Assembly: GCA_024239035.1 (NCBI GenBank)
Contig: JANBVK010000001.1
Location: forward strand, 572,202 to 621,264
Reading direction: 5' to 3'
Length of the DNA stretch: 49,063 nt
Source: Patescibacteria group bacterium
GTDB lineage: Bacteria; Patescibacteriota; Minisyncoccia; UBA6257; GWB1-50-10
A program made the position numbers and the translations under genes. The first letter of the stretch is position 1. Each line of letters starts with the position of its first letter. Below are positions 41,830 through 46,158 of this stretch, one piece after another. A model generated the notes under the pieces. It did no database searches, was not told the origin of the DNA, and saw only the letters and a list, made by a program, of their open reading frames with translations.

Positions 41830-43530
41830 TTATCTGTTAAATTTGCACCGTACCTCCCTTGTTTCCGGAATCTTTTTAAGTTTCACGAGTATCTTTTTAA
41901 TTTTTGACTCAGGTAGTGCATTACACCTAATAGTCACGATAGAGAAAGCCATTCGTTCATCGGTTTGGCTGTTTAAATAGGTGAGATTGATTTTAAATTC
42001 AGTAAAGATACTAGTAACCTCTTTTAAATATCCCGGTCGGTCTTTGTTTGTAATTTTAAACTCCATACCCGGAGCCTCGGCTCTTTTCTTAAAACTTTTG
42101 AATTTAGAACGGACAAAGCTCTGGATATGGTCTTTGGCAAGTGATGTTTTAGTGAATCGGAGCCAACTTTCTGAAGGTTTTTTGCCGCGTTGGGTCATAA
42201 TCTCAACCATATCACCGGAATTGAGCTCATAATCTAAAGGGACGATGCGACCGTTAATCTTTGCTCCGATACACTGGTTGCCGATTTCGCTGTGAATCCT
42301 ATAAGCGAAATCCACGGGAGTTGCTCCGGCCGGCAGATCAATAACATCGTTGTGAGGAGTGATTACGAAAATTCTATCTTTAAAGAACTCAACTTTTAGC
42401 GATTCAATAAATTTTTTCTCATCTGAAAATGACTTTTGCCAGTTTCGAAGTTGTTCAACCCATAGAAGTTCTTTACGGGAGGTAACCCCACCCCAGTTTT
42501 TAGAATGCTTTTTGGAGCTTTTAATTTGCTGGTATGCCCAATGGGCAGCGATACCGAACTCATTTTCTTCGTGCATTTCTTGGGTGCGGATTTGAAATTC
42601 CGTGATTTTGTTGTCTAGGCAAAATACCGTGGTATGGAGACTGCGGTAGCCGTTTGGTTTAGGCGTTGCGATGTAGTCTCTTATTCGACTGGGTAGCGGT
42701 GGCCACATTTTATGGATTATACCTAGAGCCGCATAGCAGTCCTCAATGTTTTTCACGATGATTCGGAGTGCTACAAAATCATAAATTTTCTCCGGGTCCA
42801 TATCATAACGGAGAAGTTTTTTATAGAGGCTTGAATAACGCTTAGCCCGCGAATCTACAATTACCGGGTAGATTCCGTTTTTCTCGAGCAATTTCTTGAT
42901 GACTGGTTTTATCTTTTCTGCGTATGCTGCTCGTTCTTGGTATTGCTCTTTAACGTTTTCTAACAGCCACTTATATTCCTCTGGGTAAAGGTAGGGGAAG
43001 GCGAGATCTGCCAGTTCACCGCTTAGTCCCTGCATGCCGAGCCGGTAGGCGAGCGGGGCGTAAATTTCAGTTGTCTCCCATGCCTTCTGCTTTTGCAGCT
43101 CGGGGGGCAGGAATTTAAGGGTTTGCATATTGTGGCGGCGGTCAGCAAGTTTGATGATAACAACGCGCAGATCATTGCTGAATGATAAGATGAACTTTCG
43201 CAGAGTTTCCACATCAGGATCTTTATCAGAATATTTAATTTTTTTAAGCTTAGTGAGTCCGCTTACCAGAGACGCTACTTCTTTTCCAAATCTTTTTTCA
43301 ATGTCCTTGAGAGTATAATCAGTATCTTCGACAACGTCATGAAGAAGAGCCGCGGCTATTGACGGTTCGTAAAGGTTCCATTCATGGACAGTTTTGGCAA
43401 CTTCCAGGCAGTGGGAGATGTAGGGGTCACCGCTTCTGCGTTTGGTGTCCTTATGGGCCGACCGGGCAAACTCATAAGCTTTTATTACTGCACCACCCGC
43501 TGGATACTTTTGGAGCCACTGGGTTGACAT
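41830..43530 (-). CDS. rel: bifunctional (p)ppGpp synthetase/hydrolase, Rel/SpoT homologue
   Basis: HD hydrolase (HDVVEDT), synthetase core, TGS (ITPHNDVIDLPAGATPVDFAY) and a C-terminal ACT-like domain. 566 aa. Confidence 0.85.
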   Translation of the reverse strand: MSTQWLQKYPAGGAVIKAYEFARSAHKDTKRRSGDPYISHCLEVAKTVHEWNLYEPSIAAALLHDVVEDTDYTLKDIEKRFGKEVASLVSGLTKLKKIKYSDKDPDVETLRKFILSFSNDLRVVIIKLADRRHNMQTLKFLPPELQKQKAWETTEIYAPLAYRLGMQGLSGELADLAFPYLYPEEYKWLLENVKEQYQERAAYAEKIKPVIKKLLEKNGIYPVIVDSRAKRYSSLYKKLLRYDMDPEKIYDFVALRIIVKNIEDCYAALGIIHKMWPPLPSRIRDYIATPKPNGYRSLHTTVFCLDNKITEFQIRTQEMHEENEFGIAAHWAYQQIKSSKKHSKNWGGVTSRKELLWVEQLRNWQKSFSDEKKFIESLKVEFFKDRIFVITPHNDVIDLPAGATPVDFAYRIHSEIGNQCIGAKINGRIVPLDYELNSGDMVEIMTQRGKKPSESWLRFTKTSLAKDHIQSFVRSKFKSFKKRAEAPGMEFKITNKDRPGYLKEVTSIFTEFKINLTYLNSQTDERMAFSIVTIRCNALPESKIKKILVKLKKIPETREVRCKFNR

Positions 43531-43650
43531 AAGTTTTTATTATGGCAGATTATAACGTTTTTGAAAAGAGCGGGGTTGATCCCCCATAACATAAATACTT
43601 ATGTGGGGGATTGACAAATTTTCCCTACTTACTACGCTTGTAATTAGATA

Positions 43651-44097
43651 GGGGATGCGCATGCAATTCCGGAGCGAGTTAGTCAGCCGATGACTGCAGC
43701 GGATTGCGCATCCCCGCTGCGCTTGAAAAAATATTGGGGTCGCCTCACCAACTGTTTTCGTGTGACGCTCGGATTCAGTTCCCTCGGGGTGAGGTTGTCT
43801 GAGGAGGTTTTCTGCCTTCTTGGGCCAACAGCCAGCCCCTCCAGGCTGCTGAAGACCCCTTCTAAATCGCGTGGGGCCGTTAAAGAGGTTTCCTCCGGGG
43901 AGCGTTTGGGACTGTTGTAATCGCCTCTGGAGAGCTTCTACCAGTTATTCTTTGGACACAGCTAGCCTTTAGTCCTAAAGGCAAGACTCACTTTTCTCTG
44001 ATCGCTGGTGGCCCCACGTTTCTACAATCCCAGCGAGCTTCATCGCTCGCTGTATCAGTATCCGCCCTCCGGCAGTTTTGGAGGGCGGCTTTTTTTA
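43651..44097 (+). ncRNA. unidentified GC-rich structured RNA with its own terminator
   Basis: Perfect helices: 43651-61/43705-15 (11 bp), 43743-49/43788-94, 43736-41/43854-59, 43870-78/44010-18 (9 bp), 43966-71/43976-81 and 44031-38/44045-52. Terminator CCGCCCTCC/GGAGGGCGG plus T7 at 44062-44097. Hand count is 37/60 G+C at 43801-43860. The only ORF there is low-complexity. Confidence 0.6.
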
Positions 44098-44120
44098 TAT
44101 CTAAGGTAAGGGTTTGGGGG

Positions 44121-44148
44121 TTGACAACTTTTTCCCCTTCCTTATACT
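44121..44148 (+). promoter_or_regulatory. groESL promoter
   Basis: GGGGG-TTGACA (44121-44126), 16-nt spacer, TATACT (44143-44148). Confidence 0.6.
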
Positions 44149-44159
44149 GAAGAACTGAA

Positions 44160-44186
44160 TTAGCAGTAAAAGGTCAGGAGTGCTAA
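44160..44186 (+). promoter_or_regulatory. CIRCE operator (HrcA binding site)
   Basis: TTAGCAGTA-N9-GAGTGCTAA versus the consensus TTAGCACTC-N9-GAGTGCTAA. It lies between the promoter and groES. Confidence 0.75.
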
Positions 44187-44198
44187 AAACTAAAAATT

Positions 44199-44489
44199 AT
44201 GAATCTAAAACCTTTATCAAACCGCGTTTTAATTGAACCCGTCGAGGAAGAGCAGAAGACAAAGTCTGGGATTGTTCTTCCCGATACAGTGGAAAAAGAG
44301 AGACCCATAAAAGGTAAGATTATTGCGGTGGGACCCGGTAAACTAAACGATAAAGGTGAGCGAATCTCAATGTCAGTTAAGGTCGGTGACGTCGTCCTCT
44401 TTAAGAAGTACGGACCGGATGAGTTTGAGCTGGATGATAAGAAATATTTAGTTGGGGACGAGGATGATATTCTCGCAGTTATAGAATAA
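44199..44489 (+). CDS. groES: co-chaperonin GroES
   Basis: LKPLSNRVLIEP...KSGIVLPDT mobile loop. 96 aa. Confidence 0.95.
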   Translation: MNLKPLSNRVLIEPVEEEQKTKSGIVLPDTVEKERPIKGKIIAVGPGKLNDKGERISMSVKVGDVVLFKKYGPDEFELDDKKYLVGDEDDILAVIE

Positions 44490-44496
44490 CTTTTAG

Positions 44497-46158
<1,662 letters not shown>

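Follow-up and report, generated by a model that had tools for sequence, protein, structure and literature searches.

The DNA analysed here, called the window throughout, is a stretch of 49,063 nt from an ultra-small bacterium of the Patescibacteria group (assembly GCA_024239035.1, contig JANBVK010000001.1). It occupies C1:572202-621264 of a 795-kb genome with 12 contigs and 42.8% G+C. Judged by GroES and Rel, the nearest named relatives are Candidatus Jorgensenbacteria, Wolfebacteria, and other Parcubacteria/Paceibacteria metagenome-assembled genomes. The subject of this study is an RNA-like element inside the 668-nt spacer between rel and groES. The left neighbour, rel (41830..43530, - strand), is a 566-aa open reading frame (ORF) for a RelA/SpoT-family (p)ppGpp synthetase/hydrolase and is transcribed away from the element; its homologues carry the HD, RelA_SpoT, TGS, and ACT domains. 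The right neighbour, groES (44199..44489, + strand), lies on the same strand as the element and is followed by groEL (44518-46158), with Cpn10 and Cpn60 called in the corresponding loci of relatives. A sequence-only reading of the window had described positions 43651-44097 as a structured RNA of about 450 nt, to be read as a new large non-coding RNA (ncRNA) or else as a housekeeping RNA that has diverged strongly.

The predicted fold of the + strand is modular. At the 5' end stands H1 (43651..43715), a 65-nt hairpin whose 11-bp base pairs perfectly. Next comes domain A (43736..43859), a four-way junction with the closing helix 43736-41/43854-59 and the arms A2 (43742-49/43788-95), A3 (43797-808/43814-25), and A4 (43829-37/43844-51). 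Domain B (43869..44019) is a three-way junction closed by the helix 43869-78/44010-19, with arm 1 at 43884-43939 and arm 2 at 43940-44009. The 3' end consists of hairpin P (CAGCGAGC-UUCAUC-GCUCGCUG, 44031..44052) and an intrinsic terminator (44062..44097), which a terminator scan reports as an 11-bp stem with a 5-nt loop and a T7 run. The helices that had been picked out by eye are all real complementarities: the 11 bp at 43651-61/43705-15, 7 bp at 43743-49/43788-94, 6 bp at 43736-41/43854-59, 8 bp at 44031-38/44045-52, and the long-range 9 bp at 43870-78/44010-18 pair perfectly. Equally, the hairpin at 43966-81 exists (CCTTTAGTCCTAAAGG), the G+C count in 43801-43860 is 37/60, and the terminator noted earlier has 11 pairs at 44062-44088, 8 of them G-C, before its T7.

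The fold is far more stable than expected from base composition. For the + strand of 43620-44100, which contains the element, the minimum free energy (MFE) is -199.9 kcal/mol, whereas dinucleotide shuffles average -160.2 +/- 6.3 (z = -6.3), and none of 100 shuffles was as stable. The - strand of the same region reaches z = -3.3 only. Every part is significant by itself, with z-scores of -4.2 for H1, -4.5 for domain A, -4.0 for domain B, and -5.9 for hairpin P with the terminator. Among the 154 predicted pairs 21 are G-U, which fits the + strand as the RNA strand. With 54% G+C the element lies 11 points above the genome; the RNase P RNA of this genome has 51%.

Direct searches found the element nowhere else. 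BLASTN against 60 related genomes returned only the element itself, and neither BLASTN nor nhmmer found anything in 160 groES loci drawn from collections of genomes and metagenomes. Homologues were reached through the closest Rel proteins and the contigs that encode them. The search of relatives called for by the sequence-only reading thereby yielded homologues at the same locus and on the groES strand in the same genus. In L182 (Rel 94% identical, spacer 648 nt) the nhmmer E-value is 6e-43, in its strain variant L184 1.7e-34, and in L185 (Rel 87% identical, spacer 398 nt) 3e-27. A further contig, L183, encodes the same Rel protein as L182 and ends before the spacer.

These homologues differ in which modules they possess. 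L182 lacks H1 and possesses the other modules (domains A and B, hairpin P, and the terminator), while L185 retains only domain B, hairpin P, and the terminator. H1 is therefore particular to the genome of the window: it is absent from L182/L184 and L185, and has no second copy in its own genome. Domain A is common to the window and L182/L184 (covariance model R1, 126 bits) and missing from L185. Domain B is present in L182, L184, and L185, and hairpin P is kept in every homologue of the genus. Only the 3' part of about 230 nt (domain B, hairpin P, terminator) is thus common to all genus members. The expectation of a new large ncRNA was borne out insofar as homologues occupy the same locus and their fold is kept by compensatory changes, but it is not one conserved RNA of 450 nt. 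Beyond the genus the element was not detected. Model R1 searched against 401 genomes of the order found only the genome of the window, and so did model R3 (domain B and hairpin P) among 96 genomes of the family. Sensitive BLASTN and nhmmer show the element to be single-copy in the 795-kb genome, by which a dispersed repeat or mobile element of REP, BOX, or MITE-like type was ruled out.

Upstream of the RNA lies the motif GGGGG-A-TTGACA (43605-43616), whose G-tract and -35 hexamer had also been noticed by eye. The hexamer belongs to a putative promoter (43611..43638, + strand) with TTGACA at -35 (43611-16), a 16-nt spacer, and TACGCT at -10 (43633-38). Its position is kept in both relatives with the RNA, as TTGACG-17-TACACT in L182 and TTGATG-17-TATATT in L185, and in both the conserved sequence TTGTAATTAG comes after it. 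Promoter and terminator are retained in all carriers of the RNA; L185 has a weaker terminator T-run (CTTATTT). Over 20 nt the RNA promoter region directly repeats (85%) that of groES, which lies 510 nt away. This points to an origin of the unit in a groES promoter that was duplicated around an inserted sequence, and such a duplication is probably how the RNA was born. From this sigma-70-type promoter, a diverged copy of that of groES, transcription would probably start near 43645 and end at the terminator 44062-44097, about 25 nt before the promoter and HrcA operator of groES.

The groES gene has a complete set of signals of its own. Its promoter (TTGACA-16-TATACT, 44121-48, + strand) is near-consensus, with 11/12 matches in the promoter scan. 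Reading of the sequence at 44160-86 (+ strand) places behind it a probable operator of the CIRCE (controlling inverted repeat of chaperone expression) type, TTAGCAGTA-N9-GAGTGCTAA. The HrcA operator consensus is TTAGCACTC-N9-GAGTGCTAA. The left arm of the operator at 44160-44186 is imperfect (TTAGCAGTA where the consensus has TTAGCACTC), and relatives carry TTAGCAACA. As both the promoter and the operator-like sequence follow the terminator, the element appears to be its own unit and not simply a groES leader.

A G-tract and palindrome element was additionally observed before the RNA promoter, at 43571..43609, with no strand assigned. Within it the palindrome CCCCCATAA...TTATGTGGGGG comes after CGGGGTTGATCCCCC; its first part was reported by the scan as a terminator-like site on the - strand. 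Its general form is GGGGTTGATCCCCC, palindrome, GGGGGATTGACA, placed before a -35 hexamer (window 43571-43616 and 44116-44135). It precedes the RNA promoter in the window and the groES promoter in L182. In L182 and L189 a G+C-rich hairpin of about 75 nt is inserted within a related copy. The element could serve as a binding site for a regulator or represent a mobile promoter module.

Compensatory changes, which the sequence-only reading had proposed to look for, were found in the genus homologues. Pairing was tested with the RNAalifold structure of a four-sequence alignment (A3) that covers domain B, hairpin P, and the terminator. Standard pairs fill 94.3% of the alignment cells, against 38-48% when the partners are slid. 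Eleven pairs changed on both sides, compared with 0-4 in the slid controls, and 0/500 shuffles reach these values. Where a pair differs between two genomes it stays canonical in 49/60 cases (slid controls: 26-61%). In domain B the closing helix and each of the two arms contain compensatory pairs. The long-range closing helix has a C-G pair replaced by U-A in L185, and the base of arm 2 contains two compensatory pairs, seen as CUAGC/GCUAG, CUAGU/ACUAG, and CCAGU/GCUGG. Hairpin P is paired in 100% of cells and has one compensatory pair; the conserved terminator likewise has one. Arms A3 and A4 of domain A carry pairs that are exchanged from G-C to A-U when the window is compared with L182.

The rates of change differ between the parts of the RNA. 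The identity of domain B is 57% for the window and L182 and 67% for L182 and L185, which is about the level of the fourfold-degenerate sites of groEL in the same comparisons (54% and 76%). In hairpin P and the terminator the identity between genomes is 77-87% and so exceeds that of the groEL fourfold sites (54-76%). Paired columns are better conserved than unpaired ones when compared with the window (0.66 vs 0.41 in L182; 0.59 vs 0.33 in L185). The trees of the flanking genes disagree: in the rel tree the window groups with L182 (fourfold-site identity 0.82 vs 0.62), but in the groES and groEL trees L182 groups with L185 (0.76-0.80) and the window stands apart (0.54-0.56). This discordance across 41830-46158 of the window, relative to L182 and L185, indicates recombination within or near the RNA gene.

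The reading we prefer, with a probability of roughly 0.55, is that the rel-groES spacer holds a genuine, independently transcribed, genus-restricted, and modular structured ncRNA gene whose product acts in trans. Selection would act on the fold and not on the sequence. The 5' modules are gained and lost among close relatives. The product would be a stable protein-binding or regulatory RNA, recognised by its shape, its conserved closing helix, and its 3' hairpins. Its position suggests that it may be expressed alongside the stress genes rel and groESL. The analysis demonstrates the structure, its conservation, its confinement to one lineage, and its place outside the known classes, whereas transcription, action in trans, and a tie to stress are inferences. 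To the best of our literature search no such RNA has been described before.

Several observations weigh against this reading. The -10 hexamer (TACGCT) is weak despite a perfect -35, and the site was not picked up by the promoter scan. In a relative whose Rel is 78% identical, the spacer is just 84 nt long and holds no RNA; the RNA is also absent from several further relatives, some of them with short spacers. The RNA can therefore be dispensed with, and its modules turn over fast. The covariation statistics are thin, as they stem from three independent lineages and one strain variant only, and the tested structure was derived from the same four-sequence alignment that was used for the test. 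Domain B changes at about the rate of synonymous sites. Finally, neither a binding motif nor a seed or a partner protein came to light.

Some of these points would equally be expected if the element were non-functional, hairpin-rich spacer DNA. In that case a spacer prone to recombination would have gained, duplicated, and lost GC-rich inverted repeats, and the stems would owe their preservation to processes at the DNA level, for instance template switching between hairpin arms, rather than to selection on an RNA. The quick turnover of modules, the near-neutral divergence of domain B, the relatives that lack the element, the many perfect stems, and the recombination inside the spacer to which the flanking trees point are all in its favour. 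We nevertheless hold this explanation to be unlikely, although it survives better than any other alternative. Long-range helices around domains of 120-150 nt are maintained through compensatory changes. The many G-U pairs make the fold strand-specific, paired columns outlast unpaired ones in the comparisons with the window, and a promoter and a terminator accompany the element in all carriers. Its single copy in the genome also speaks against repeat-like DNA.

A functional RNA could also act in cis, as a leader or attenuator of groESL. The copied groES promoter would then be HrcA-independent, and the terminator would be read through in response to some cue, for instance temperature or a ligand, which would provide a second route to groESL expression. 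The RNA does lie on the groES strand, and only about 100 nt separate its terminator from the start codon of groES. Its promoter copies that of groES, the terminator T-run is weaker in L185, and wherever a relative has such an RNA it is associated with groES. However, known attenuators are built otherwise: here a complete near-consensus promoter and a CIRCE operator stand between the terminator and groES. No alternative antiterminator pairing was noticed, though no search aimed at one was made. The element has no conserved aptamer-like core, as its interior is near-neutral and whole domains are optional, and it matches no riboswitch or leader family. We consider a cis-acting leader improbable.

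It is very improbable that the element represents a strongly diverged housekeeping RNA, whether RNase P RNA, transfer-messenger RNA (tmRNA), signal recognition particle (SRP) RNA, or a functional analogue of 6S RNA. At the gathering threshold, Rfam 15 finds only two tRNAs in the whole window. This search included riboswitches, leaders, OLE, GOLLD, ROOL, raiA, HEARO, ribozymes, and introns. When 43500-44250 was searched at E up to 10 only terminator-driven matches appeared, the best of them in the element being Qrr with 28.8 bits (threshold: 50). The failure to see RNase P, tmRNA, or SRP signatures by eye thus agrees with the models, none of which matches the element at E up to 10. Eight analogous loci of relatives gave no meaningful match either, at the gathering threshold or at E up to 10.

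The known housekeeping RNAs are in part accounted for elsewhere in the genome. RNase P RNA (RF00010/RF00011) was rejected as a candidate, its copy being at C1:57881-58228 (83 bits, E = 3.5e-26). The same applies to tmRNA (RF00023), located at C1:384423-384736 (124 bits); ARAGORN found no tmRNA in the window. 6S RNA (RF00013) has no match in the element or in the genome. The fold of the element is branched and is not the rod of about 180 nt with a central bubble that defines 6S RNA. Absence from close relatives is likewise unlike an essential RNA.

Neither SRP RNA nor 6S RNA was found by Rfam models anywhere in the genome. The element's closing sequences, GGGGYC...GRCCCCAC(C), loosely recall the paired ends of E. 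coli 4.5S RNA. A divergent SRP RNA was briefly attractive because the models for small and large SRP RNA (RF00169, RF01854) gave nothing over the cut-off in 31 genomes (the genome of the window and 30 relatives). It was rejected since the protein partners Ffh and FtsY are absent as well and there is no helix-8 motif. The SRP54-type GTPase domain of these proteins (PF00448) was found in 0/21 genomes of the order and in 14/14 control genomes, and no helix-8-like motif exists anywhere in the genome of the window. Among the ORFs of this genome the DT[AS]GR motif occurs in one unrelated Cys-rich ORF only, and none combines the SRP-GTPase motifs. The loss of ffh and ffs in Parcubacteria has already been published (Nelson and Stegen 2015, PMC4508563). 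Also dropped was the interpretation of GGGGUC...GACCCC-ACC as tRNA-like or as an RNase P substrate: the A after GACCCC pairs with the U before GGGG, which only lengthens the helix.

A motif scan turned up one unrelated feature by chance. At G000 C1:183487, on the - strand, there is an open frame of 629 codons that is very cysteine-rich and has many CxxC pairs.

A protein-coding gene or decayed pseudogene can be dismissed, because the 76-aa ORF at 43690-43920, which does exist and for which no Shine-Dalgarno sequence was seen, has no Pfam match, starts inside the window-specific H1, spans domain A (lacking in L185), and is not conserved in frame in relatives, the homologues differing by indels of 1, 2, and 4 nt.

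The same spacer was examined in the relatives next closest by Rel (67-73% identity), which belong to sister genera. It often holds other G+C-rich, ORF-free, and strongly folded sequences on the groES strand (L077, L050, which is identical to L193, L117, L186, L190, and L191). Most have a promoter of the ATTGACAAA type and all have a terminator at the end. L077 (2339-3000), L050 (2465-3000), and L117 (2641-3000), all on the groES strand, form a family of their own (nhmmer E 1e-16 to 1e-8) without an Rfam match. Further sites of this family are G009:C1:196441-196613 and G353:C3:59608-59789. Its core, UCUCC...GCGCGUCGGGCGCAGGAGGGCGGG...CCCAAAC, is absent from the window, and among the 401 genomes of the order the family is confined to one genus.

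No similarity between the window and the sister-genus RNAs was detected by nhmmer, nor by model R1, which was run on all but L193. Their folds nevertheless have features in common. In the MFE folds of eight of these spacer RNAs and of the window RNA there is a module of 91-151 nt closed by the helix RUGRGRYC/GRYCYCAY and followed by a hairpin; the helix is looser in L186 and L190. TGGGGTC stands at the closing-helix position in 5/9 sequences. Between genera the closing helix differs in a compensatory manner (GUGGGGUC/GACCCCAC vs GUGAGGUC/GACCUCAC). L077 and L050 have the same order as the window, with a module closed by GUGAGGUC/GACCUCAC, a hairpin, and the terminator, while L117 lacks that module. 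Model R3 matches L191 weakly (E = 4e-4) through this frame of closing helix and hairpin. Model R1 does not detect the L191 module, although ATGGGGTCGCC is common to both. This miss and the weak R3 match leave deep homology with the sister-genus RNAs unproven; only position and the closing helix suggest that the spacer RNAs are homologous across the family. A MAFFT alignment that joined L191 to domain A was wrong and was not used.

In L191 another gene intervenes: a 94-aa ORF with a GIY-YIG nuclease domain (1705-1989) lies directly upstream of rel (Rel 71% identical), between rel and the spacer RNA. It hints at mobile-element traffic in the spacer.

A broader interpretation, which we regard as improbable, is that the window RNA is a member of a family-wide, hypervariable RNA class that occupies the rel-groES spacer of Jorgensenbacteria-like Parcubacteria and serves a conserved cellular partner in a ribonucleoprotein (RNP) specific to the candidate phyla radiation (CPR). 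The members would share only the frame, that is, the RUGRGRYC/GRYCYCAY module, the hairpin, and the terminator, and evolution could freely rebuild the interior. The partner could be a stress-linked RNA-binding protein or RNA polymerase, and the RNA might have taken over a role lost with SRP or 6S in these reduced genomes.

The rel-groES spacer RNA can be compared with several known systems. Like OLE, GOLLD, ROOL, raiA, and HEARO/omega RNA, large or ornate bacterial ncRNAs whose functions are unknown or were found recently, it is long, multi-domain, G+C-rich, and intergenic in a genome of lower G+C, with predicted transcription signals of its own. Unlike them it matches no Rfam 15 model at E up to 10 and is found in one genus, not in many phyla. 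Moreover, its near-neutral interior and optional modules argue against an elaborate conserved tertiary core. It resembles shape-conserving RNAs of the 6S type in that an independent, presumably stable transcript would keep its secondary structure while its sequence drifts fast. However, it has branched junctions instead of a long rod with a bubble resembling an open promoter, does not match RF00013, and is absent from close relatives. A G-rich 5' end that pairs with a C-rich 3' end makes it loosely similar to SRP (4.5S) RNA, but it has no helix-8 motif and no RF00169/RF01854 match, and its clade is without Ffh and FtsY.

Riboswitch and attenuator leaders are likewise structured RNAs with an intrinsic terminator and a same-strand gene downstream. 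They differ in that here a full promoter and operator precede the gene, and there is neither a conserved ligand-binding core nor a family match. The REP/REPIN and BOX repeats are, like the modules of the window RNA, G+C-rich intergenic hairpins that are inserted and deleted between relatives, but the element is single-copy, has a fixed syntenic position, and carries promoter and terminator signals. A further parallel is the neighbouring-genus RNA (L077, L050/L193, L117, G009, and G353), which has the same rel-groES spacer, strand, ATTGACAAA promoter, and terminator. It has no sequence similarity to the window RNA by nhmmer or covariance models.

The other side of the spacer offers one further observation. 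A candidate promoter of rel (TTTTCA-17-CATAAT, with TG before the -10) lies at 43539-43567 on the - strand and ends 8 nt before the rel start codon. The rel mRNA may therefore be leaderless or nearly so.

To our knowledge almost nothing is known of the non-coding RNAs of the CPR. The rel-groES spacer RNA is a concrete and well-delimited CPR ncRNA candidate without an Rfam relative, flanked by the stringent factor gene rel on one side and by the chaperonin operon groESL on the other. The locus also illustrates how an RNA of this kind may arise and change: the groES promoter duplicated, hairpin domains gained and lost at 87-94% Rel identity, and recombination in the spacer. If the frame seen in the sister genera is not that of a common partner, the RNA would be an ordinary lineage-specific small RNA of modest interest. 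If it does reflect a common partner, it would point to a CPR-specific RNP.

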